A stretch of 12,066 nt of DNA from Sulfurimonadaceae bacterium (GCA_041548245.1 JBFESZ010000066.1:1-12066); one strand, 5' to 3'. Counted from the first letter of the stretch, positions 21 through 12,066 are shown. The notes: generated by a model from the sequence alone, not told the origin. Numbers and translations are program-made.

Positions 21-45
21 CACAGACCCCTTCTGCTTTTTTTAT

Positions 46-54
46 AGTGTAGCA
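46..54 (-). promoter_or_regulatory. Putative extended -10 promoter (TGcTACACT) for the leftward gene
   Basis: The reverse complement of 46..54 is TGCTACACT, matching TGn-TAnnnT. It lies 13 nt upstream of the SD-like AAGGGG. Confidence 0.45.
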
Positions 55-162
55 AAATTTATGTGATTCCTTTTGAAAAAAGGCAATTCTTGTTTCATAT
101 TGTAATCAAATGAACTATCCATCAAAGAAAAAGAGTAGTACTAATTCAATTATGTATTGTTT

Positions 163-171
163 TGTTATATT
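163..171 (+). promoter_or_regulatory. Putative extended -10 promoter (TGtTATATT) for the 11-gene operon
   Basis: TGTTATATT at 163..171 is a TGn plus 5/6 match to TATAAT. It sits in an AT-rich region about 80 nt before the first start codon, with no convincing -35. Confidence 0.45.
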
Positions 172-249
172 TTGGTTCATAGTACATAGACAGAGATCGA
201 TAGTATTTGACTCAGTACCTTAATAACTGAACAAAAGAGAGATAATACA

Positions 250-1200
250 GTGTCGGTAGTGACAGAGAACAGACAAACACCAGAATATCCCATCCCGGCA
301 AAGCGCAATATTGCCATTTTTTTCGCCTCATTAGGTATAGGCTGGTATCTGTTATGGACAGCCTCACATGCAACACTTCTTCCTATGGTTCTTGCCGCTT
401 TCGCTTTTGCGTTCATCCATAACACTCTATTTTCACTTATGCATGAAGCTGTTCACTGTGTCTTTTCGAAAAAGCCACTTGTTAACGAGTTTTTTGGCAC
501 GATTCTGGCGATCGCCTTTCCCACTTCTTTCACAATGCAGAGGGTAGCTCACCTGGGTCACCATAAACGCAATCGTACAGATAAAGATCTGTATGATTAT
601 TATCTTCCCGGTCAATCCAAAAAGTTACGAGACTTTTGGATGTATACAGGGAATCTTTTTGGTCTTTATTGGTTCTGCATACCTCTGAGCAATTTGATTA
701 TCCTGCTGATGCCTATGGTCTTTACATCAAAATGGTTCCTGCATGGGCCGGCTCGGCTACTCGGTTTTGAACCATACATCGAAGAAGTGACTCAACACTC
801 AATCGTCCGTATCTGGATGGAGACATTGTTTGCCTTACTGTATCAGATCATGCTTTGGTATGTTCTGGACTTGTCCTGGCAGGGATGGTTGCTCTGCCAC
901 TGGTTTTTTGCCTTGCATTGGTCAGCCTTGCAATATGTTGACCATGCATGGAGTCCTAGGGATGTTATAAACGGAGCCTGGGATCTCCGTGTTTTACCGG
1001 TTTCAAGATGGCTAGCACTGAACTATCATTATCATCTTGCTCATCACCGGTATCCTTCGGTCCCATGGGTTTACCTGCCTCAGCTGATCAGAAAAGATGA
1101 TCCCAGCCCAACTTTTTGGTCAATCTACTTTTCCCTTTGGGGCGGAACGAGACCTGCCCCGCCGATGGTCCAATCAAATGAGACGAGAAAAAAGATATGA
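250..1200 (+). CDS. Membrane fatty acid desaturase/hydroxylase family protein (di-iron, His-box)
   Basis: 316 aa with three His boxes: HEAVH (442..456), HLGHH (550..564) and HYHLAHH (1027..1047). It also has YVDHA before box 3, a downstream HHRYPSVPW motif and several hydrophobic segments. The start is GTG at 250, with an alternative in-frame GTG at 259. Confidence 0.9.
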   Translation: MSVVTENRQTPEYPIPAKRNIAIFFASLGIGWYLLWTASHATLLPMVLAAFAFAFIHNTLFSLMHEAVHCVFSKKPLVNEFFGTILAIAFPTSFTMQRVAHLGHHKRNRTDKDLYDYYLPGQSKKLRDFWMYTGNLFGLYWFCIPLSNLIILLMPMVFTSKWFLHGPARLLGFEPYIEEVTQHSIVRIWMETLFALLYQIMLWYVLDLSWQGWLLCHWFFALHWSALQYVDHAWSPRDVINGAWDLRVLPVSRWLALNYHYHLAHHRYPSVPWVYLPQLIRKDDPSPTFWSIYFSLWGGTRPAPPMVQSNETRKKI

Positions 1201-1859
1201 AAAAGGCACTCGTCAACGTAATGCATATAGATGAAGCGACGAAACAAACGAACTCTGCGAAGGACACATGGAAGGCATACGCTTATTGGGCCTTTTGGGT
1301 CGGGGTCGCTTTTTTCAGTGTCTATCCCACATGCAATTGGTTGACATCTGAACGCACAGAAGTCAATCAGCTTTTTTTTTCTGCTGAATTGAGCATGCCT
1401 TTTATCCCATGGTTTTATTGGTTTTATATCTCTTTATATCTTCTGTTTTTTCTCCCTCCGTTTTTTCTTGATGTCCCTCGTCTACGGATATTGGGAAAGC
1501 GCATTATCATGGCGACCATCATTAGCGGGATAATATTTATTCTTTTGCCCACCGGTCTTGGATTTGAGAGGATAGCACCTGAAGGTTTCTATGGGCAGTT
1601 GTTTGATACACTGTTTAGCCTCGATTTGCCGCACAATATGACACCGTCTTTACATGTAGTCTATAGCGCATTGATACTGTTTGCCGTGATAGAGTCATCT
1701 AAAAACAGATCAATGCAAGGATTGGCTCTGATCTGGTTGGTCAGTATTAGTATTTCAACATTACTGGTGCATCAGCATCATCTTATTGATATCATTGCGG
1801 CATTGGCCTTAGTCTGGCTTGTGTCAAAAATCTTAATAAAAGGAAAAACAGATGTATAA
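1197..1859 (+). CDS. PAP2-superfamily integral membrane phosphatase/phosphotransferase
   Basis: 220 aa with about 5-6 TM segments. It carries the C2-type motif N-x-x-PSLH (HNMTPSLHV) and the C3-type motif H-x-x-x-D (HQHHLID). ATGA overlap with the upstream stop. Confidence 0.8.
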   Translation: MKKALVNVMHIDEATKQTNSAKDTWKAYAYWAFWVGVAFFSVYPTCNWLTSERTEVNQLFFSAELSMPFIPWFYWFYISLYLLFFLPPFFLDVPRLRILGKRIIMATIISGIIFILLPTGLGFERIAPEGFYGQLFDTLFSLDLPHNMTPSLHVVYSALILFAVIESSKNRSMQGLALIWLVSISISTLLVHQHHLIDIIAALALVWLVSKILIKGKTDV

Positions 1860-2448
1860 AACCTTACTTTTTTGTATTTTGCTATGTATGGGAGGTTCTT
1901 TGCATGCAGAAGATGAGACTCTCATCCATCAGCAGTTGCGTTCAGTCTTAACTGGAATCGAGGATGCGATCAACGAACAGAAATACGATGAACTATCGCA
2001 ATTCTTTCATAAAGACCTTCGTGTAACGACGATCAATCAGGAAATCATCTCATCATCTGATGAGATCGGTGAATATTTTCACCGTTGGTTTGGTCCGAAA
2101 GGGTACTTAAAAACCCTGCAGATCAAGCTCGAACCGGATGCTTTAACTGAGTTTTACGGAAACAACAGCTTTGGAATCGTGCGGGGACATGGAGATGAAA
2201 GATACATCTTGGCAGATGGACGCAGCTTCGATATGAAGACACGCTGGACGGCAACTGTAATCAAAGAGAGTCAAGGGAAGTGGAGCATTCTCTCTTTGCA
2301 TATCGGAACAGACTTTTTAGACAACCCTCTTTTGCATGTGGCTGAGAAGTCGGCGATCTATTTGGCCGGTGCAGGCGTATTGGTCGGATTGCTCTTGGGA
2401 CTGATCATAGCGTTTTTATGGCGTAAAAGAGCTTATTCCAAACAATGA
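1852..2448 (+). CDS. NTF2/SnoaL-like (DUF4440-type) protein with N-terminal signal peptide and C-terminal membrane anchor
   Basis: 198 aa. It has a Sec-type leader MYKTLLFCILLCMGGSLHA and an NTF2-like pattern (N-terminal helix, AINEQKYDELSQFF, terminal RWTATVIKESQGKWSILSLH). The C-terminal hydrophobic stretch is followed by RKR. RBS AAGGA at about 1840..1844. Confidence 0.7.
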   Translation: MYKTLLFCILLCMGGSLHAEDETLIHQQLRSVLTGIEDAINEQKYDELSQFFHKDLRVTTINQEIISSSDEIGEYFHRWFGPKGYLKTLQIKLEPDALTEFYGNNSFGIVRGHGDERYILADGRSFDMKTRWTATVIKESQGKWSILSLHIGTDFLDNPLLHVAEKSAIYLAGAGVLVGLLLGLIIAFLWRKRAYSKQ

Positions 2449-3173
2449 AAGACTCCCTTTATACGGTTCTTATCAAACCGATCCATGATCTGAACGAGAG
2501 TGAGGTTGAGGCTATCGTCGAACTCTATCTAGCTTATTATGACGGCAGCAGCCGCGACCGTATCATCGCTGATCTGAAGACAAAGACAGAGATACTCTTA
2601 CTGCATCATGATAGCATCCTTATAGGCTTCAGCAGTTTTGAGTTGTATCAAATCCTGTATGAAGGGAAAATGCGGCAGATCATCTATTCCGGAGACACTG
2701 TAGTGCATCATAAGCATTGGGGGCAACAGGCTCTTTCTTCTGCATGGATACGTTATATTGGAGCATTGCGATCAAAAGTAGGCGAAATGCCTATTTACTG
2801 GTTCTTGATCGTAAAGGGCCACCGTACCTATAAGTTTTTGCCTGCATTTACAAAATCCTTCTTTCCCCATTGGAGCATAGATAGGAGTGACCTTAAACCG
2901 CTTTTGGATATTCTGGCCAAAGAGAAGTTCGAGGACGATTATAATGAGAGCAAAGGCTTATTGGAATTTAAAACATCAAAAGGACATCTTAAAGAGAACA
3001 TTGCCTTGGTCAAAGAGAATGAAAAAGAAAAACCTTCTGTTAATTTTTTTCTCCAGCGCAATCCAAACTACCGTTTAGGACATGAACTGGCTTGTTTATG
3101 TGAGTTTGATGATGAGAACCTGAAGCCTTTTACCAAACGAATCCTTTATAGCAAAAGCGAAAATAGAGAATGA
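2445..3173 (+). CDS. Hypothetical protein, probable GNAT-like acyltransferase fold
   Basis: 242-aa soluble ORF with ATGA overlaps at both ends. LIGFSSF followed by IYSGDTVVHHKHWGQQAL resembles the GNAT beta3/beta4-motif A region. YWFLIVKGHRTYKFL follows. The fold assignment is by eye. Confidence 0.55.
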   Translation: MKDSLYTVLIKPIHDLNESEVEAIVELYLAYYDGSSRDRIIADLKTKTEILLLHHDSILIGFSSFELYQILYEGKMRQIIYSGDTVVHHKHWGQQALSSAWIRYIGALRSKVGEMPIYWFLIVKGHRTYKFLPAFTKSFFPHWSIDRSDLKPLLDILAKEKFEDDYNESKGLLEFKTSKGHLKENIALVKENEKEKPSVNFFLQRNPNYRLGHELACLCEFDDENLKPFTKRILYSKSENRE

Positions 3174-4639
3174 CAGAACAGAAAGAATGGCTCCTGGATT
3201 GCTTACATAGAAATGCCCAAACCGAATACGGTTTGAAATACAACTTTCAGGCGATCAGATCACTCAGCGACTACCGAAAACAGGTACCGCTTACAGGCTA
3301 TGAAGCGCTCCAAGTCTATATTGATGCTATTGCCAAAGGCGATAAGGATATTTTGTTCGCAGGCCTGCCTGTTGCCTTTGAAGTCACAGGAGGCAGTACG
3401 GGAGGGAAAAAACTGATTCCCTACACAAAAGAGAGCTTTACGGACTTTCAAAGGGCTATTTTACCCTGGTTTGTGACGACTATGCAGACCTACGGCCTAA
3501 GCGGAAAAAATGCCTACTGGGCTATCAGCCCGGCATTAAGAGCAGAAGAAACGAGTAAAGGCGGGATTCGCATCGGGGTCAAAGATGAAGAGTATCTGGG
3601 GGAAGCTTTCTCAGCTATCGCAGGATCCTATACTGTCCCTTCTTGGGTAGGCGAGCTAAAAGACATTTCCACATGGCAGCTTTGTACGCTTTACTGGCTG
3701 ATCAAATCCAAAGAACTTGAACTGATCTCAGTCTGGAGCCCAACTTTTTTGTTGATGCTTTTAGAGGCACTGGATGACAAAAAAGAAGAGCTCACAATGC
3801 TCTTTAGCGTAGGTTCAGAAATAGATGGGCATCTGCTTGGATCCGATGGACAGGCCCTTATGCGCTTAAAAAACTACATCAGGATCAGAGACACGGCATC
3901 CCTGTGGCCTGAGCTTAAGTTAATAAGCTGTTGGGCAGATGCTTCATCGAAGCCTTTTTTTGAAACCTTGAAGAGACGTTTTTCCCATGTCCAATTTCAG
4001 GCAAAGGGACTCATCTCAACAGAGAGTGTTGTGACTGTACCGAATCAGACAGGACAGCCTGTTTTGGCCAAACAGAGTGCTTTTTATGAGTTTATAGACG
4101 AAACCGGCATCATAAGCCTGGCTGATGACCTTTGTATAGGACAGAAATATGAAGTCGTAATTACAACAAACGGAGGACTTTATCGTTACAAAACAGGCGA
4201 TATCGTTCTTTGCGAAGAGCTTGGAAAAGAGGCGACGGTATTACGTTTTCAAGGGCGGAAAGGCACAGTATCTGATCTTGTAGGCGAAAAACTCACAGAA
4301 GCATTTGTTTCGACCTCATTGCAAAATGTTGAAGGGTTCTGTATGCTGCTGGCATCTGCCGACCATAAGCCCGGCTATACCTTGCTCCTGGATGCAGATA
4401 TGACGTATGACAGCGAAGAGCTAAGACAAGAAGTCGAGGCTCAGCTGTGCAAAAACCCGCAATACGATTATGCACGAAAGATGGGACAGCTAAAAAGCCT
4501 TGACACCTGTTCAATGAAATATCCGACAAAATTTTATTTGGACTATAGAGCGAGCAAAGGGTCTCGCATGGGAGACATCAAAGTACCTGTTCTGTGCACC
4601 GACAAAGATTTTTATACTATGATCAAAGGAATGCGATAG
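3170..4639 (+). CDS. GH3-family acyl-adenylate-forming amido synthetase (ANL superfamily)
   Basis: 489 aa with GH3 hallmarks: the N-terminal NAQTEYG...VPLTGYE, the P-loop FEVTGGSTGGKKLIPYT (3377..3427), STE (aligning to the GH3 Y-x-x-S-E motif), FYEFI, YEVVITTNGGLYRYKTGDIV, FQGR...GEK and a C-terminal KVP. Confidence 0.88.
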   Translation: MTEQKEWLLDCLHRNAQTEYGLKYNFQAIRSLSDYRKQVPLTGYEALQVYIDAIAKGDKDILFAGLPVAFEVTGGSTGGKKLIPYTKESFTDFQRAILPWFVTTMQTYGLSGKNAYWAISPALRAEETSKGGIRIGVKDEEYLGEAFSAIAGSYTVPSWVGELKDISTWQLCTLYWLIKSKELELISVWSPTFLLMLLEALDDKKEELTMLFSVGSEIDGHLLGSDGQALMRLKNYIRIRDTASLWPELKLISCWADASSKPFFETLKRRFSHVQFQAKGLISTESVVTVPNQTGQPVLAKQSAFYEFIDETGIISLADDLCIGQKYEVVITTNGGLYRYKTGDIVLCEELGKEATVLRFQGRKGTVSDLVGEKLTEAFVSTSLQNVEGFCMLLASADHKPGYTLLLDADMTYDSEELRQEVEAQLCKNPQYDYARKMGQLKSLDTCSMKYPTKFYLDYRASKGSRMGDIKVPVLCTDKDFYTMIKGMR

Positions 4640-6006
4640 TGAAAATTGTTCTGATCTCACCAAAAGGACCACTTTATCGATATAAAGGCGGGATCTTTAA
4701 AAAGTCACTCCGTTATCAACCCCTTACATTGACAACGCTTGCCGCGCTTGTTCCGCAAGAGCTGAATGCAAAGGTTGAGCTTATTGATGAAAGCATACAG
4801 ACTGTACCCGATAACATCGATGCTGACATCATTGGCATGACGGTCATCAGCGGTACGGCAAGCCGTAGTTATGAATTGGCTAAAACGTTTAGAGAACGGG
4901 GTATCTTGGTGGTTCTTGGAGGTCCGCATGTAACACTCTTGCCTGAGGAAGCGAAAGCGCATGCGGATGTCATTATTACCGGCTATGCAGAGCAGACTTG
5001 GCCGCAGTTTTTGCGAGACTTTAAAAATGGCGAAGCACAAGAGATCTATGTGCAAAACAGTGACTTTAGTTTGGAGAACATGCCCTTTCCCAAAAGAGAG
5101 CTCTTTGATAAAAAACATTTTCTTACCCAGGCGGTCTTTGAGGCAACAAGGTCATGTGTCCATAAATGTGAGTTCTGTGTTGCACCTACGGCCTGGGGCA
5201 GTAAACAGTACCAAAAACCCATTGAGTGGGTCATCGAGGACATCAAACGGGTGGGTCAGAAAAAGATTATTTTTGTTGATTTGAACCTTGTCTCGGACAA
5301 GGTCTATGCAAAAGAGTTGTTTAGGCGATTAATCCCCTTAGACCTCCAATGGTTTGGCCTCTCTACAGTTTTAATTGCCAATGATGACGAGATGCTGGAG
5401 CTCATGGCTAGAAGTGGCTGCAAAGGGCTTCTTTTGGGATTGGAAAGCATCTCAGAGGATAACCTGAAAGAGAATAGAAAACAGTTTAACGGGACCGTTG
5501 ATTACCGATCGCTGATCCAAAAACTGCATTCCCTGGGGATCTCTATCCAAGGCTGCTTTGTCTTTGGCCTGGATAATGACACCTTGGACACCTTTGATGA
5601 GACGGCCGAGTTTGTTCTTGAGACAGGGATAGATCTTCCCCGTTTTGCTATTGCCACGCCTTTCCCTTCGACCCCTTTATACCAGCGTCTTTTGGCAGAG
5701 GAGAGAATATTGACAAAAAACTGGGAGCTATATGATGGCCAACATGTCGTGTTTGAACCAAAGCACATGAGTGTTCAAGAGCTGGCTTTAGGACATGAAC
5801 AGGTATGGAAAAAGGTTTACTCTTATGCCGGCATATCCAAAAGATTATGGAAAGCAAAAAACTTTCAACCGCTTGCCTTGAGCTCGAACATCGGATACCG
5901 TTATTACGCGAACAATTTAGACCGTTATTACAATTGCGATTGGCAGATCAAGAGTCTATGGCCAAACCCTATGGAGCACCTCGGTGCCAAGATAAAGACG
6001 AGGTAG
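4639..6006 (+). CDS. Cobalamin-binding-domain radical SAM enzyme (paralog 1)
   Basis: The true start is probably GTG at 4639 (TAGTG overlap with the GH3 stop, RBS AAAGGA at 4625..4630), giving MKIVLISP like the other paralogs, rather than the ORF-track start at 4594. It has a B12-binding domain with GGPHVTLLP and a CxxxCxxC motif CVHKCEFC (5155..5178), plus GLES, FVFGLDND and TPFPSTPLY. Confidence 0.92.
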   Translation: MKIVLISPKGPLYRYKGGIFKKSLRYQPLTLTTLAALVPQELNAKVELIDESIQTVPDNIDADIIGMTVISGTASRSYELAKTFRERGILVVLGGPHVTLLPEEAKAHADVIITGYAEQTWPQFLRDFKNGEAQEIYVQNSDFSLENMPFPKRELFDKKHFLTQAVFEATRSCVHKCEFCVAPTAWGSKQYQKPIEWVIEDIKRVGQKKIIFVDLNLVSDKVYAKELFRRLIPLDLQWFGLSTVLIANDDEMLELMARSGCKGLLLGLESISEDNLKENRKQFNGTVDYRSLIQKLHSLGISIQGCFVFGLDNDTLDTFDETAEFVLETGIDLPRFAIATPFPSTPLYQRLLAEERILTKNWELYDGQHVVFEPKHMSVQELALGHEQVWKKVYSYAGISKRLWKAKNFQPLALSSNIGYRYYANNLDRYYNCDWQIKSLWPNPMEHLGAKIKTR

Positions 6007-6007
6007 T

Positions 6008-7366
6008 ATGCACATCACTATAATCCACCCGGCGATCGGACATAAAAAAAATGAGAAGTATATCCGTTCATGGCAGATGGAACCGCTTCCTGCAGCAGCG
6101 ATATCAGGCTTGACTCCAAAAGATGTAAGCCGGGATTTTTATGACGACAGGATGGAGAAAATCCCTTATGACAGAAAAACCGATGCTGTTGTGATATCGG
6201 TAGAGACCTACACGGCAAAACGTGCTTATCAGATCGCCAGCGAATACAGAAAAAGAGGTGTTCCCGTCATCATGGGAGGCTTTCATGTCACACTTCTTCC
6301 TGATGAAGTCCAAGAGTATGCCGAAGCTATCGTTATCGGTGAAGCAGAAGACATTTGGGCTGAAGTAATAGAAGACCTGAGAAACAAGCGATTAAAAAAA
6401 ACCTATAAAAGTGCGGATCGGCCTTTATTGGATAAGATTTGTCTGGACAGGTCAATATTTGGAAAAAAAAGATATCTGCCCATAGGCTTGGTTGAGACAG
6501 GAAGAGGATGCAAGTATTCATGTGACTTTTGTGCGATACAGTCCTACTTTGAAAGTACACATCGCAATAGACCGATTGATGATATTGTTGAAGAGATCAG
6601 ATCTTTGAAAAAAACGAAGAAAGTCTTTTTCTTTGTTGATGACAACTTCATCGGAAGCATAAAAAAAGCCAAAGAACTTTTACGGGCTCTTATCCCTTTG
6701 AAGATACGCTGGATTACGCAGATGACTATTGACGGTGCCCAAGATGAAGAGCTTTTGTCCCTACTTCAAGAGAGCGGATGCATGGGTGTCCTCATAGGTT
6801 TTGAAAGTCTAAACGAGAAGAACCTTGATCTTATGAATAAAAACTTCAATACGGCCCACGGCGGCTACGAAAAGGCATTGGATAAACTAAGGAAATATAA
6901 TATACGGATCTATGCGACTTTTGTTTTTGGGTATGACCATGACACAAAAGAAGCTTTTGAGGAGGCTGTCAAGTTTGCTATTGATCAAAAGTTTTATATT
7001 GCAGCCTTTAACCATCTGACCCCTTTCCCCGGAACACCTCTTTTTAAACAGATGCAAAAGGACAAAAGGCTGCTATATGAGAAATGGTGGCTAGATGACA
7101 ACTATTTCTATAACGATCTGCCTTTTACACCAAAACAGTTTTCTCCCTCCGAAGTCACTGAACTATGCGTTCAGGCCCGTAGAGACTTCTATTCATTCAG
7201 CAGTATCTTCAAGCGTTTACTCAGCAGAGTAAACAGAAGCAATGCCTTTATGCTACGAAATTTTATTCCTATCAATTATATGCACAGAAAAGATGTAAGC
7301 GGAAGAAATGGCTATCCGCTAGGCGATGAGAGTTACACCGGCGAACTTGTAAAGACAGGGTCATGA
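6008..7366 (+). CDS. Cobalamin-binding-domain radical SAM enzyme (paralog 2)
   Basis: 452 aa with GGFHVTLLP, RGCKYSCDFC (Cys codons within 6509..6532), FVDDN, GFES, FVFGYDHD and TPFPGTPL. Confidence 0.93.
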   Translation: MHITIIHPAIGHKKNEKYIRSWQMEPLPAAAISGLTPKDVSRDFYDDRMEKIPYDRKTDAVVISVETYTAKRAYQIASEYRKRGVPVIMGGFHVTLLPDEVQEYAEAIVIGEAEDIWAEVIEDLRNKRLKKTYKSADRPLLDKICLDRSIFGKKRYLPIGLVETGRGCKYSCDFCAIQSYFESTHRNRPIDDIVEEIRSLKKTKKVFFFVDDNFIGSIKKAKELLRALIPLKIRWITQMTIDGAQDEELLSLLQESGCMGVLIGFESLNEKNLDLMNKNFNTAHGGYEKALDKLRKYNIRIYATFVFGYDHDTKEAFEEAVKFAIDQKFYIAAFNHLTPFPGTPLFKQMQKDKRLLYEKWWLDDNYFYNDLPFTPKQFSPSEVTELCVQARRDFYSFSSIFKRLLSRVNRSNAFMLRNFIPINYMHRKDVSGRNGYPLGDESYTGELVKTGS

Positions 7367-8478
7367 GCAAAGCATACACAGACCGCAATCTTCTGTATAG
7401 AAACGCAAACAAGGACGATGATGAAGCCCTAAAAAAGCTATTAAGCGAAAACAGTATGGACTCTTGGGTAAACCTTTCTTTAGAGCGGAACCCGTCCTAT
7501 TTCGATGCACACGGCCTTATGGGCGAAAGCCATACCATGATCGCATATGATACCCATGAGGACAAGTGTGTCGGTATGTACTCGTGTACGTATATGAATC
7601 TGCATGTCAATGCAGAAGAACAAAACACAGCCTATCTGGGAGAGTTGCGCGTAGATGAAAAGTACAGAAACAAGATAAGGGTTCTTAGATACGGCTACAA
7701 GTCGCTTGAAAAACTTTTGCCTATGCAAAAAGATGCACCGATCTATATCACAAGCATTGCAAGTGAAAACACCAAAGCGCGCAGAGTGCTTGAAGCAAAC
7801 CTGAATGGAATGCCTACCTACAGACCTTTGGCAGAGATGAGTACACTTATCTTCTCAACACAGTTCTCATGCAAAAATAAAAAGTCAAGAGCAGCATCAC
7901 TAGAAGACATCCCAAGTCTTGTCAGCTTTTATAATCACAAGGCCAAATCCTACCACTTCTCACCCTGTTTAAGCGAAGCGTGGCTAAACGGGCTATCACC
8001 TGAAATTGGTCTGGACATCAACGATTTCTACATACGTGAGAATGCCGACGGAGAGATAGAAGCTTGTTTCGCGCTATGGGATCAAAGAAGGTTTAAGCAG
8101 AGTGTGATCAAAAGCTACAGAGCTCCTTTATCCTGGCTGCGTCCACTCTACAATGTTTTTGCGAGACTCACGCAGAGGGTTGAGCTGCCTAAGGAAAACA
8201 GCATGCTGGAACAGGTCTATATCTCTTTTTTTGCCTGCGGCAAAAGCGGGCTTTTTGTGGGATGTCTCAAGGAAGCAGCCTCGTTGGCTAAAGCAAAAGG
8301 GGCAAGTTCATGTGTTTTAGGACTTTCCTCACAGCACAACAGCCTTGCTCTTTTAAAAAGAGAGCTCAAGGCAAACGTCTATAGGACCTGCATAGAAATG
8401 GTAGGTTTTGACGACGGGCAGCAAGAGGCCGAACTCAATAAAGAATTTTTAATACAGCCGGAGGTGGCACTGTTATGA
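7363..8478 (+). CDS. GNAT-fold protein (probably tandem GNAT domains), putative acyltransferase
   Basis: 371 aa. The N-terminal YRNANKDDDEAL and internal RAASLEDIPSL resemble the R-x-A-x-x-x-D opening of two GNAT domains. AYLGELRVDEKYRNK resembles motif A, and ENTKARRVL resembles the motif B N-x-x-A. Confidence 0.65.
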   Translation: MSKAYTDRNLLYRNANKDDDEALKKLLSENSMDSWVNLSLERNPSYFDAHGLMGESHTMIAYDTHEDKCVGMYSCTYMNLHVNAEEQNTAYLGELRVDEKYRNKIRVLRYGYKSLEKLLPMQKDAPIYITSIASENTKARRVLEANLNGMPTYRPLAEMSTLIFSTQFSCKNKKSRAASLEDIPSLVSFYNHKAKSYHFSPCLSEAWLNGLSPEIGLDINDFYIRENADGEIEACFALWDQRRFKQSVIKSYRAPLSWLRPLYNVFARLTQRVELPKENSMLEQVYISFFACGKSGLFVGCLKEAASLAKAKGASSCVLGLSSQHNSLALLKRELKANVYRTCIEMVGFDDGQQEAELNKEFLIQPEVALL

Positions 8479-9788
8479 GATTAGAAAAGATATCGCTTAT
8501 CCGTCCAAACATAGGGAACTTTCGCTCCAAAGACGCTTTGACCCCTTTGTCTATTGCGATTTTGGCTGCACGGACGCCAAAAGATATACAGTTGAGTTTT
8601 TATGATGAGAGAGTAGAGGAACTCCCTCTTGACGACCTCCCCGACCTTGTTGCCATAACGGTTGAGACATTTACTGCAAGACGTTCCTATGAGATCGCTA
8701 AAAGGTATAGGCAAAAAGGTGTGACTGTTGTGATGGGAGGGTACCACCCTACACTCTTGCCTTCAGAAGTCTTAGAACATTCAGACTCGATTGTCATAGG
8801 AGATGCCGAGGGATGCTGGGAAGAACTCTTAGATGACTTTAAAGAGGATAGACTCCAAAAAACGTATAGCGGTTCCAATGCAAAGGAGCTGGATGATTAT
8901 CGACTGGACAGAACAATTTTCCGTGATAAAAAGTATCTTCCTGTAGAATTAATACAATACAGCCGGGGGTGCAGGTTCTCATGTGAGTTTTGTTCCATAC
9001 ACGCCTTTTATAAAGAGACTTTGAGGGTCAGATCGGTTGAAAGTGTCATAGATGAGATTACAGGTATGGATAGAAAAAAACTTTTTTTCTTTGTGGATGA
9101 CAATCTTTTTAGTTCAAAAAAAGATTTATACGCACTGTTTGATGCACTTACCCCTTTAAAGATACGATGGTCTTGCCAAATCAGCATTGATGTGGCTCAA
9201 GACGAAGACCTTTTAGACCGGCTGGCAGGTTCGGGTTGCATCTTTGCCTTGATCGGGTTTGAGTCCCTAAATGAAGACAACCTCAAACAGATGGGGAAGA
9301 AATGGAACAAGGTTGCAGGTGAGTACATGAAGATTGTACAGAAGTTCCACGATAGAGGCATGGCAGTGTATGGTACCTTTGTATTTGGGTATGACCACGA
9401 TACCACGGAGGTCATTCAAAAGAGTCTTGATTTTGCGATGGAGGCGAAACTTGAGATCGCCAACTTTAATCCGCTGACGCCGACACCCGGGTCAGCCTTA
9501 TACGATCGATTAAAAAAAGAAGGACGTCTTATCTCTGAAACCTGGTGGAAGGATGAATCCTACAAATACGGAGACCCCATCTTTACACCGAAACAGATGA
9601 GCCCGGAACTTTTTTCCCAAAAGTGTTTTGAAGTCAAAAAAGAGTTTTATTCATTAAAATCGATTATCAGCAGAGTCTTCTTTACCACACATAAATTCAA
9701 TCTCTTCAGAATATCCATGGTTGCCTTGGCCAATTTTGTCTCGCGTAAAGAAGTACATCAAAAACAAAATAAAGTCTTAGGGGAGTAG
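8475..9788 (+). CDS. Cobalamin-binding-domain radical SAM enzyme (paralog 3)
   Basis: 437 aa with GGYHPTLLP, RGCRFSCEFC (Cys codons within 8970..8993), FVDDN, GFES, FVFGYDHD and TPTPGSALY. RBS GGAGG at about 8460..8464. Confidence 0.93.
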   Translation: MRLEKISLIRPNIGNFRSKDALTPLSIAILAARTPKDIQLSFYDERVEELPLDDLPDLVAITVETFTARRSYEIAKRYRQKGVTVVMGGYHPTLLPSEVLEHSDSIVIGDAEGCWEELLDDFKEDRLQKTYSGSNAKELDDYRLDRTIFRDKKYLPVELIQYSRGCRFSCEFCSIHAFYKETLRVRSVESVIDEITGMDRKKLFFFVDDNLFSSKKDLYALFDALTPLKIRWSCQISIDVAQDEDLLDRLAGSGCIFALIGFESLNEDNLKQMGKKWNKVAGEYMKIVQKFHDRGMAVYGTFVFGYDHDTTEVIQKSLDFAMEAKLEIANFNPLTPTPGSALYDRLKKEGRLISETWWKDESYKYGDPIFTPKQMSPELFSQKCFEVKKEFYSLKSIISRVFFTTHKFNLFRISMVALANFVSRKEVHQKQNKVLGE

Positions 9789-9790
9789 AC

Positions 9791-11122
9791 ATGAAAATAA
9801 CGTTGATCAAACCGACAATCGGAAGACAAGAACACAGTTTATACGTGGATGAAGGACGAATGGAGCCATTGATGTTAGGCGTGCTTGCGGGACTTACTCC
9901 TGCTGACATCGAGGTTGTCTTGTATGATGACAGAATGGAGTCCATTCCTTATGACGAAGAGACAGACCTTGTCGCAATAACGGTGGAGACCTATACAGCA
10001 AGACGTGCCTATGAAATCTCTAAAGAGTATATGGACCGCGGCGTGCCGGTGATCATGGGCGGGATGCATGTCTCATTACTGCCTGAAGAAGTCCAAGCCC
10101 ACGCAGACTCTATTTTTTTGGGCGATGCAGAAACCGCATGGAAACAGGTGCTTGAGGATGTACAAAACAACCGACTACAAAAAGTATACAAAGGACCTCC
10201 CGGCATAGGACAGCTTGGCGGAGTCATGCCAAGAAGAGAGATTTACAAAGGAAAAGGCTACCTTCCTATGTCTTTGATGCAGTTTTCTCGCGGCTGCAAA
10301 TACGAGTGCAGCTTTTGTGCCGTGAGCGAATACTTTGATAAAAAACATTATGTACGTAAAATAGATGAAGTCCTGCAGGAGATCGAGAGCCAAGAGCGGC
10401 GTTTTTTATTTTTTGTTGATGACAATATCGGTTCACACAAAAGAGCATTAAAAGATCTGTGCAGGGAACTTATACCTATGAATGTCAGATGGATATCTCA
10501 GGCAAGTCTGGATATCACCAAAGACAGTGAACTGATGAGACTGATGGCTGACAGCGGAAACATAGGCAATGTCATGGGTTTTGAATCCATCACGCATGAA
10601 AGTCTCGAAAACGCTAAAAAAGTTTCTAATCTGATTGGCTTTACAAATTATGAAGATGAGATACGGATATTGAGAGAGCATGGGATGCAGACATGGGCAG
10701 CCTTTACCTTGGGATATGATTATGATACCTATGACTCTATTCTTGCGACTATGGAGTTTGCCTTAAAAAACAAATTCACACTCGCTGCATATAATATTTT
10801 AATGCCCTACCCAAACACCCCCCTGTATCGACAGCTTGAGCAAGAAAACAGACTTTTGTATGACGGAAAATGGTGGCTGCATCCGGAGTACAGGTTTAAC
10901 AGTGCGGCCTTCATCCCAAAGACGATGACACCCGATGAGCTCACGGCAGCCTGTCATGAGGCGCGCGTAAAGTTCAACACGCTTCCTTCGCTTCTTTATC
11001 GGTTCTCGGATGTAAAGACAAACATGAAGTCCTTGTGGAGGATAGCCTCTTACTGGAAGTACACGACGCTTTTTCGCAAAGAGGTATATAAAAAACATAA
11101 GATGAGATTTGGACTAAAATGA
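9791..11122 (+). CDS. Cobalamin-binding-domain radical SAM enzyme (paralog 4)
   Basis: 443 aa with GGMHVSLLP, RGCKYECSFC (Cys codons within 10295..10318), FVDDN, GFES, FTLGYDYD and MPYPNTPLY. RBS GGGGAG at about 9780..9785. Confidence 0.93.
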   Translation: MKITLIKPTIGRQEHSLYVDEGRMEPLMLGVLAGLTPADIEVVLYDDRMESIPYDEETDLVAITVETYTARRAYEISKEYMDRGVPVIMGGMHVSLLPEEVQAHADSIFLGDAETAWKQVLEDVQNNRLQKVYKGPPGIGQLGGVMPRREIYKGKGYLPMSLMQFSRGCKYECSFCAVSEYFDKKHYVRKIDEVLQEIESQERRFLFFVDDNIGSHKRALKDLCRELIPMNVRWISQASLDITKDSELMRLMADSGNIGNVMGFESITHESLENAKKVSNLIGFTNYEDEIRILREHGMQTWAAFTLGYDYDTYDSILATMEFALKNKFTLAAYNILMPYPNTPLYRQLEQENRLLYDGKWWLHPEYRFNSAAFIPKTMTPDELTAACHEARVKFNTLPSLLYRFSDVKTNMKSLWRIASYWKYTTLFRKEVYKKHKMRFGLK

Positions 11123-11790
11123 ACAGGCAGTTTTTTAACTGGTATCAGTATCTAGGACCCATCATATTGACGCCTCTGTCCTTTTTTTTATGGTGGGAAA
11201 GTTCCAATGGTTCTGTTCAACTTGTCATGATGGCATGGTTGATCCCTATCATCTATGCTTACATAGTCCCTGCCATCGGGACCAACGTATTAAAGGTATG
11301 GGAATTTGATTCAAAATATAAGATTGGAAAATTTAGATTGCAGCACGGATTTGTCTTTGGAAGTGCGACATCAACGATTGCCTGGTTGAGTCATGTCAGT
11401 ACTGCCACAAACTTGTTTGAAGTTTTTCAAACAGCATTTATCTTCACATCTGTATTAGGGTTTTGGAATATTGTTTATGACATAAAAGCTATAAAGTCTA
11501 AGGTATTGGTTGTGTATAATCAGCCTTGGGCAGATGGAAAGACGGAAGAAGCCATTGTCATGGATTATGCGCCTTGGTTTTTTGCTGGTTTTGGCATGCC
11601 CTATGGTCTTGGCCTTGGAACGGCAGAACTATTATCGGCTGAGCATATGCTGAACGGTTCCTTGTTCTCTTTACTGCTGGTCAGTACGCTTGCATTGACA
11701 ATGATTATCCCTGTACTGGGATATAGACACTATTCCTTTAAAACACACGGGCATTCTGGATGCCACCCCATAGACAGGCATAGCCCCTAA
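11119..11790 (+). CDS. Polytopic integral membrane protein of unknown function
   Basis: 223 aa with about 6 hydrophobic segments and a His-rich C-terminus (HYSFKTHGHSGCHP). ATGA overlap with the paralog 4 stop. Confidence 0.75.
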   Translation: MNRQFFNWYQYLGPIILTPLSFFLWWESSNGSVQLVMMAWLIPIIYAYIVPAIGTNVLKVWEFDSKYKIGKFRLQHGFVFGSATSTIAWLSHVSTATNLFEVFQTAFIFTSVLGFWNIVYDIKAIKSKVLVVYNQPWADGKTEEAIVMDYAPWFFAGFGMPYGLGLGTAELLSAEHMLNGSLFSLLLVSTLALTMIIPVLGYRHYSFKTHGHSGCHPIDRHSP

Positions 11791-11843
11791 AAGACGATTG
11801 TCTCTAAACGACATTTTCACATGAATAACATTCAGCATCAGGT

Positions 11844-11853
11844 TGGTTATAAT
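11844..11853 (+). promoter_or_regulatory. Consensus -10 box (TATAAT at 11848..11853) for the HAD gene, probably producing a leaderless mRNA
   Basis: The sequence is TGGTTATAAT, then 6 nt (TCGCTT), then ATG at 11860. There is no Shine-Dalgarno sequence. Confidence 0.65.
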
Positions 11854-11859
11854 TCGCTT

Positions 11860-12066
11860 ATGAAAAAATATATATTATTTGATAATGACGGCGTGCTTGT
11901 CGAGACAGAAAAATGGTACTTTACGGCCAACTTCGAGATCCTTAAGTCTATGGGGATCACACTTGAAGAAGAACGTTATAAAGAGATCATGATCAAGGGC
12001 CAGAGTGCATTTTTACTGGCCGAAGAGCAAGGCTTTGACAGCCTCAGCGTTGAAAAAGCAAGGGAC
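11860..12066 (+). CDS. HAD-superfamily hydrolase/phosphatase (subfamily IA-like), 5' part, truncated by the window edge
   Basis: Not in the ORF track. It translates as MKKYILFDNDGVLVETEKWYFTANFEILKSMGITLEEERYKEIMIKGQSAFLLAEEQGFDSLSVEKARD, with HAD motif I (hhFDxDGVLV) at the N-terminus and the frame open to 12066. Confidence 0.85.
   Translation, partial: MKKYILFDNDGVLVETEKWYFTANFEILKSMGITLEEERYKEIMIKGQSAFLLAEEQGFDSLSVEKARD

Follow-up and report, generated by a model that had tools for sequence, protein, structure and literature searches.

Four anciently diverged B12-domain radical SAM paralogues encoded with GH3 and GNAT-fold enzymes in an operon of a Sulfurimonadaceae bacterium

INTRODUCTION

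Some biosynthetic pathways employ several B12 radical S-adenosylmethionine (SAM) enzymes, as does one carbapenem pathway with ThnK, ThnL, and ThnP. ThnL is listed as a non-methylase (PMC12931638). The paralogous B12-domain radical SAM enzymes GrsA and GrsB, the ring synthases of glycerol dialkyl glycerol tetraethers, act one after the other, each at a different site on the same lipid, and combine a Rossmann domain, a partial TIM barrel, and C-terminal helices (PMC13459092); B12 radical SAM enzymes that cyclise or desaturate lipids are documented (PMC13459092; bioRxiv 10.1101/2025.10.20.683597). In the OlsH/OlsI/OlsG ornithine-lipid pathway of Singulisphaera acidiphila, a bacterial GH3 enzyme forms an N-acyl amide, with a second acyltransferase beside it (PMC12493201). 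Here, we describe an operon of a Sulfurimonadaceae bacterium that encodes four B12-domain radical SAM paralogues (RS1 to RS4) together with a GH3-family ligase (GH3) and two GNAT-fold enzymes (GNAT-A and GNAT-B). It lies on a 12,066-nucleotide stretch (GCA_041548245.1, JBFESZ010000066.1:1-12066), referred to as the window, which is the whole of one contig (C66) of a 2.16-Mb genome. On balance, the evidence favors RS1 to RS4 as anciently specialised, likely cobalamin-binding enzymes that would act in sequence, each at its own position, on the predicted acyl-amide product of GNAT-A, GH3, and GNAT-B.

In its mode of action, the operon would most closely resemble GrsA/GrsB or the enzymes of carbapenem synthesis, with paralogues in series, grafted onto an OlsH-like amide ligase, and it appears to be a member of none of these systems. 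GrsA/GrsB, compared here by their description, differ in their archaeal isoprenoid substrate, in being two enzymes, and in having no GH3/GNAT context. TokK, CysS, and MgmA/QCMT share the fold of the RS proteins (Z scores of 17 to 27), and RS2 to RS4 have a hydrophobic residue at the putative equivalent of TokK Trp76; however, identity is only 15 to 21%, the C-terminal domain of the RS proteins is much shorter than in TokK and CysS, and the window holds no beta-lactam, nonribosomal peptide synthetase, or methanogenesis genes. AprD4, a radical SAM diol dehydratase of similar length, differs in its 17% identity, its aminoglycoside substrate, and its lack of bound cobalamin (PMC12931638), and its model NF033070 scored 34 to 47 bits against a cut-off of 500. 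HpnP/HpnR, HpnJ, BchE, and the ladderane TIGR04072 proteins belong to the same superfamily branch, but the NCBIfam models BchE, HpnJ, HpnR, PhpK, AprD4, and TIGR04072 gave at best 110 bits against cut-offs of 360 to 650, and no hopanoid, chlorophyll, or acyl carrier protein/FabF genes were found in the window. Judged by these profile scores, RS1 to RS4 are outside the ladderane, BchE, HpnJ/HpnR, and PhpK families. GH3 scored 47.6 bits with the OlsH model (cut-off, 620), neither the alpha/beta-hydrolase OlsI nor OlsG is among the 11 genes of the window, and PMC12493201 mentions neither radical SAM nor GNAT nor desaturase.

RESULTS

Ancient divergence of the radical SAM paralogues

A FastTree phylogeny of 105 rows from 27 sources, in which groups were set by best hit in agreement with operon position, placed each of RS1 to RS4 in a single clade with local support of 99 to 100, and the four sub-trees were broadly parallel. 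Mean identity was 61 to 70% within the orthogroups (range, 45 to 99%) versus 33 to 43% between them (range, 28 to 48%). The alignment contained 48 universal columns and 26 columns that were conserved but differed between paralogues, many of the latter in barrel strands. The ratio of nonsynonymous to synonymous substitution (dN/dS) ranged from 0.015 to 0.17 in 23 gene comparisons from six pairs of related loci, and comparison of the window RS genes with three relatives gave a nonsynonymous divergence (pN) of 0.14 to 0.18 at near-saturated synonymous divergence (pS). From these comparisons, we conclude that RS1 to RS4 are not recent duplicates and that each constitutes a separate clade across four phyla and is under purifying selection. 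The sequence-only reading had proposed nonredundant paralogues specialised for separate steps, and the four monophyletic orthogroups, the paralogue-specific columns, and the purifying selection support it. For the same reasons, redundancy or a role in gene dosage is very improbable, even though RS3 and RS4 are dispensable in some lineages.

The four reading frames contain no internal stops, and the Pfam Radical_SAM domain scored above the cut-off in each. For the B12-binding domain PF02310, RS1, RS2, RS3, and RS4 yielded 44.5, 34.4, 35.7, and 31.8 bits, respectively (cut-off, 32.1); in the genome-wide search RS4 scored 34.6 bits, so that all four reach the cut-off there. Weak matches to DUF4070 and Radical_SAM_N2 were also obtained. 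The four-way alignment displayed the motifs GG[PFYM]HxT/SLLP, CxxxCxxC, G[LF]ES, FxxGxDxD, and PxPxT/SxL in all four proteins, and CxxxCxxC was present in 235 of 235 RS1 to RS4 sequences. The window paralogues are 33 to 44% identical to one another, and no other protein of the host genome is a close homologue. RS1 is the most divergent, with a DLN motif and an invariant Arg335, while RS3 has three extra residues at its N terminus (MRLEKISLIRP). Of the 11,541 bp that the operon spans, 5,373 (46.6%) belong to the four RS genes. What had been read from the sequence, namely, four proteins of 437 to 455 amino acids (aa) with a common architecture that make up nearly half of the operon, none of them pseudogenised, is confirmed by these data and by a pN far below pS.

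Fold and putative cobalamin site

The AlphaFold2 (AF2) model of RS2 had a predicted local distance difference test score (pLDDT) of 93 and showed five strands in residues 2 to 134, while the model and the fold search placed the CxxxCxxC [4Fe-4S] motif in a partial TIM barrel. It matched MgmA end to end (Z 26.8; root mean square deviation [rmsd], 3.6; 366 residues aligned) and, over residues 1 to 440, CysS (Z 24.9), TsrM (24.1), OxsB (23.6), and TokK (17.1); its Rossmann domain aligned from residue 1 or 2 to those of TsrM, OxsB, MgmA, and TokK. In described enzymes, the loop after strand 3 supplies the residue under the cobalt; radical methylases have a hydrophobic residue there, TsrM and OxsB a polar or solvent-open site (PMC13331322; PMC12931638), and a hydrophobic lower face is linked to radical methylation (PMC12931638). 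TokK Trp76 aligned, in a weak alignment (E 0.12), with RS2 Tyr68, a residue that the model places after strand 3. This column was occupied by Tyr or Phe in 168 of 168 RS2 to RS4 sequences, by Gly in 67 of 67 RS1 sequences, and by Ser in four sequences of RS5, a fifth paralogue described below. By this tentative assignment, RS2 to RS4 resemble radical methylases, and RS1, with an invariant Gly where the others carry an aromatic residue, may have a different chemistry. RS1 to RS4 likely bind and depend on cobalamin, although AprD4 shows that such a fold by itself does not prove it. The host MetH is intact, and the MetH cap domain was detected in 50 of 50 carrier genomes.

A TsrM-type non-radical methylase was also considered and ruled against. 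The cluster-ligating Glu273 of TsrM aligned with an invariant Asn and Glu236, after the third Cys, with Ile, Val, or Ala, and the position of the TsrM Arg under the cobalt is occupied by Tyr, Phe, or Gly.

The paralogues might instead be specialised for mostly non-methylating reactions on the same acyl-amide (dehydration, desaturation, oxidation, or ring closure, as in AprD4, Ted, BchE, and GrsA/B), possibly without cobalamin. AprD4 ranked first both among the structural matches of RS2 and among the PDB sequences matched by the four-way profile, BchE was the best NCBIfam model for RS2 to RS4, though far below its cut-off, and the lipid cyclases and desaturases cited above provide precedents. 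Since PF02310 is reached by all four proteins and the lower-axial-equivalent residue is aromatic in RS2 to RS4, we assign this alternative a lower, though not negligible, probability.

Acyl-transfer enzymes and gene fusions

The nucleotide-binding motifs of GH3 (TGGSTGGKK, GLISTE, and GLYRYKTGD) were recognisable by comparison with those given in PMC12493201. The AF2 model of GNAT-A (pLDDT 95) matched GNAT folds with Z scores of 11 to 12 and pointed to no specific family. The GNAT-A and GNAT-B profiles were not detectably close to each other (13.6% probability). GNAT-B weakly matched N-myristoyltransferases NMT1/2 with E values of 0.018 to 0.1, and a Pfam GNAT domain was found in 31 of 61 members. 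N-Myristoyltransferase (NMT) consists of a tandem GNAT fold in which the C-terminal carboxylate is the catalytic base (PMC7048800). GNAT-B ends in a conserved PExxxL, and the last residue is Leu in 69 of the 72 orthologues.

Full-length fusions of RS2 to GNAT-B were found in 13 of 37 long RS2 homologues (13 protein clusters). They comprise 805 to 817 aa, are 33 to 86% identical to one another, and have GNAT-B as the last domain in every case; one derives from a Dehalococcoidales genome. The fusion family (P0127 to P0141) has a length of about 815 aa and PYLELGAL-like ends. A profile search for longer GNAT-B forms retrieved none among 7,997 scored candidates, a weak negative that the RS2-GNAT-B fusions contradict. 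GNAT-A was fused to GH3 in five of the 150 GNAT-A representatives listed. A further set of B12 radical SAM proteins, P0143 to P0156 (830 to 1020 aa), is more distantly related, with about 30% identity; several have alpha/beta-hydrolase domains, and one is named from Candidatus Wujingus californicus.

The likeness of GNAT-B to NMT would also fit a peptide or protein substrate, with GNAT-B lipidating an N terminus and the RS enzymes C-methylating residues, either as protein modification or in the maturation of a ribosomally synthesized and posttranslationally modified peptide. The top folds of GNAT-A were N-terminal acetyltransferases, tied with many others, and MgmA, one of the fold matches, methylates a protein residue. 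However, among 1,554 candidates of 20 to 90 aa, no conserved small open reading frame (ORF) was found within 600 bp of the cluster genes in the GTDB and plasmid loci, where a distant or very divergent precursor would be possible, and the recurrent small ORFs either were lineage specific or proved to be fragments or shadows of larger accessory genes. The window encodes no peptidase, and the accessory genes encode lipid or small-molecule enzymes. A peptide substrate is therefore quite unlikely.

Distribution and modular gene content

Related loci were collected in two sets. The GTDB set comprised the best 80 of 489 confirmed relatives from a scan with an RS1 alignment, and the metagenome set comprised 80 of at least 463 matches from an independent RS4-anchored scan. 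Both are biased toward clusters like that of the window, and kin among the loci make them non-independent. A flank filter left out 37 of the 80 GTDB loci (nine five-enzyme loci among them) and 60 of the 80 metagenome loci. Carriers belong to Campylobacterota, alpha-, beta-, and gammaproteobacterial Pseudomonadota, Acidobacteriota, and Planctomycetota and include Citrobacter, Morganella, Budvicia, and Limnobaculum; culturable ones are Citrobacter youngae ATCC 29220, Morganella, and Budvicia. A Citrobacter plasmid carries the cluster plus a fifth radical SAM gene, and one Sulfurimonadaceae-labelled locus encodes proteins 99 to 100% identical to those of the window. The cluster was present in 2 of 61 genomes searched, and the four genes were present in 1 of 60 relatives.

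The order GNAT-A, GH3, RS1, RS2, GNAT-B, RS3, RS4 recurred in most GTDB loci, 57 of the 80 containing all four RS genes. With enough flank, the GTDB loci (n = 43) carried all four in 33 cases, RS1 and RS2 in 7, and RS1/3/4, RS1/2/5, and RS1/2/3 in 1 each; the corresponding metagenome loci (n = 20) carried all four in 15 cases, RS3 and RS4 in 2, RS1 and RS2 in 2, and RS2/3/4 in 1. None of these 43 and 20 loci had a single copy, so that retention of only one copy, named beforehand as the outcome that would speak against separate roles, did not occur.

Four adjacencies persisted even where the gene order was shuffled (GTDB and metagenome sets, respectively): GNAT-A then GH3 (73/75 and 31/33), RS2 then GNAT-B (71/74 and 32/36), RS3 then RS4 (56/58 and 46/50), and RS1 then RS2 (74/75 and 26/34). 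The operon is thus composed of fixed pairs. RS3 and RS4 were gained or lost as a pair, which lay on another contig in 2 of 22 carriers with short clusters. The membrane protein ORF11 travels with RS3/RS4; in loci with enough flank it never occurred without RS4 (31 GTDB and 7 metagenome loci with RS4, 0 without).

In the window, RS1 to RS4 are arranged as two tandem pairs split by the GNAT-B gene. Adjacency and joint gain or loss are what would be expected if RS1/RS2 and RS3/RS4 were obligate hetero-oligomers that carry out one transformation per pair, and two proteins (P0122 and P0124, both single-contig records) look like in-frame RS-RS fusions. Yet the RS-RS fusions, six in all, come from single-contig records, and the junctions of at least two look like frameshifts, whereas RS2 is repeatedly fused to GNAT-B. 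The catalytic motifs are complete in all four proteins, RS1 without RS2 (locus L054) and RS3 without RS4 (locus L084) were each seen once, and RS1 was not followed by RS2 in 8 of the 34 metagenome cases. We consider obligate pairing improbable.

A desaturase gene was present in 42 of 43 GTDB loci and 11 of 20 metagenome loci with enough flank. Recurrent accessories in the 80 GTDB loci were an AurF-like diiron protein (13 loci), a P450 (9 loci), and a Rieske oxygenase (8 loci), besides an O-methyltransferase and RS5. The last is sister to RS1 and was found at L052:17576-18886, at L071:18720-20063, and in related Enterobacterales loci, on the opposite strand together with the desaturase; in Morganella the O-methyltransferase follows it. 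One Acidobacteriota genome contains two versions of the cluster (L175, at G076:C110, and L054), one without RS2 and the other without RS4 in the stretch read. At L084:15834-17417, desaturase and PAP2 domains are fused in one 528-aa protein.

A protein of about 320 aa with no Pfam match is encoded in eight loci (L026, L027, L031, L046, L050, L058, L063, and L070), all without RS3/RS4, and five of these also have the Rieske oxygenase. This pattern, drawn from few lineages, looks as if an O2-dependent route had replaced the pair and so lends some weight to non-methylating chemistry, but locus L030 has the Rieske oxygenase and RS3/RS4 together.

In Acinetobacter baumannii (NZ_CP064203.1, L172:345-11235), one run of genes encodes an amidase, an HlyD/MFS pump, GNAT-A, GH3, an outer-membrane efflux protein, GNAT-B, and a SurE-family protein, and no radical SAM gene was detected in it. 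This represents a minimal form of the pathway, apparently linked to export. A core without radical SAM genes suggests that GNAT-A, GH3, and GNAT-B make the scaffold and that the RS enzymes tailor it.

Operon layout and insertion site

The 11 plus-strand genes overlap or abut and span positions 250 to 11790 in the order desaturase, PAP2-like, SnoaL-fold, GNAT-A, GH3, RS1, RS2, GNAT-B, RS3, RS4, and membrane protein (Table 1). No Rfam family was matched in the window and therefore no B12 riboswitch, and a promoter scan returned 14 sites, fewer than in shuffled sequences (21.9). A PADLOC match was to the generic radical SAM model PDC-M51A (up to 44 bits) and was not taken as a sign of defence. 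For ORF11, the automatic Atlas name "steroid 5-alpha reductase C-terminal" was under the recognition threshold, and the protein stays without a family.

Table 1. Features of the window (positions counted from its first nucleotide)
Feature	Position	Strand	Basis
Desaturase, membrane His-box fatty-acid-desaturase family, 316 aa, accessory module	250..1200	+	PF00487, 89 bits
PAP2-superfamily membrane protein, 220 aa	1197..1859	+	PF14378/PF01569 below cut-off; PSLH and HQHH motifs conserved (family consensus)
SnoaL/DUF4440-fold protein, 198 aa, C-terminal membrane anchor	1852..2448	+	PF14534, 29.5 bits; hydropathy peak at 171-189
GNAT-A, single GNAT-fold acyltransferase-like protein, 242 aa	2445..3173	+	AF2 model and fold search
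GH3-family acyl-adenylate-forming amide ligase, 489 aa	3170..4639	+	PF03321/PF23571/PF23572 above cut-off
RS1, B12-domain radical SAM protein, 455 aa	4639..6006	+	GTG start overlaps GH3 stop
RS2, B12-domain radical SAM protein, 452 aa	6008..7366	+	Pfam domains, AF2 model
GNAT-B, N-myristoyltransferase-like acyltransferase, 371 aa	7363..8478	+	Weak profile matches; lies within the span earlier assigned to the four RS genes
RS3, B12-domain radical SAM protein, 437 aa, first of the optional RS3/RS4 pair	8475..9788	+	Pfam domains
RS4, B12-domain radical SAM protein, 443 aa	9791..11122	+	Pfam domains
ORF11, membrane protein, 223 aa	11119..11790	+	No Pfam family in 39 members; Atlas clusters unnamed
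Strain-variable insertion (probable), approximate extent	42..11847	.	Contig joints, loose ends, depth

The operon is flanked by a divergent small gene (start near 20, minus strand) and by a HAD hydrolase gene. Metagenome contigs, which may derive from related strains or species, showed joints from 62 to 11857 and from 85 to 11860 and loose ends at 41 and 11848, and the summed depth was higher at both ends of the window than inside. In the same assembly (L194), a second HAD copy directly adjoins a homologue of the left-edge gene; with an assembly contamination of 5.7%, L194 may belong to a relative. Same-genus genomes have other neighbors upstream of the HAD gene. The operon thus probably represents a strain-variable insertion here; the window showed no integrase. 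The HAD gene (11857-12066 in the window) lies outside the operon; its start is most likely 11857 (MKKYILFD, as in relatives) and not 11821, and the promoter-like site at 11825-11853 is its own.

DISCUSSION

We propose a pathway in which GH3, together with GNAT-A, would adenylate a carboxylic acid and form an amide. GNAT-B would then take a long acyl chain from its thioester and attach it to an amine, with the free C-terminal carboxylate of the enzyme as the base, and RS2, its fusion partner, would modify the acyl donor or the immediate product. RS2, RS3, and RS4 would most likely perform radical C-methylation, in which a 5'-deoxyadenosyl radical takes a hydrogen and methylcobalamin gives the CH3 group, while RS1, a constant member of the core whose predicted cobalamin environment differs, may carry out a non-methylating step. 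RS3 and RS4, with the membrane protein, would form an optional second layer, and the desaturase, PAP2, and SnoaL-fold proteins would finish the product at the membrane. The sequence-only reading had each paralogue acting at its own step on a shared hydrophobic substrate. The first part holds up, and an acylated, hydrophobic substrate gains indirect support from GH3, the two GNATs, the desaturase, PAP2, and the RS2-GNAT-B fusions.

Several observations weigh against this proposal. The best fold match of RS2 is AprD4 (Z 30.0; rmsd, 3.0; 385 residues aligned), an enzyme without cobalamin. The weakness of the TokK alignment over the N terminus makes the lower-axial assignment tentative, and the likeness of GNAT-B to NMT is below significance. 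The MetH cap discriminates poorly, since 52 of 61 relatives also have it and almost none of them carries the cluster. Finally, an RS3/RS4-level match was absent from 12 of 22 whole carrier genomes with short clusters, genomes whose completeness is not given; four steps are not always required.

Among the literature matches listed, there was no description of the cluster; subscription papers and bioRxiv supplements lay outside the search and may bear on its novelty. It is possible, although we hold this only tentatively, that the cluster is a widespread, horizontally mobile pathway to an undescribed class of polymethylated or ring-bearing acyl-amide lipids, with up to five B12 radical SAM enzymes serving as a modular code, an RS2 coupled to a bacterial NMT-like enzyme, and an RS1 that catalyzes a non-methylating reaction of a new kind.

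The versions with two, three, four, and five enzymes and the version without RS genes form a natural deletion series, which few pathways offer. Such a series would allow testing of how paralogues of the same fold choose position and chemistry and of whether methylation can be predicted from the lower-axial residue. Should the product prove to be a modified membrane lipid, it would constitute a new lipid class with carriers as different as marine sulfur oxidisers and gut bacteria, and functions would be assigned to bacterial GH3 and NMT-like enzymes.

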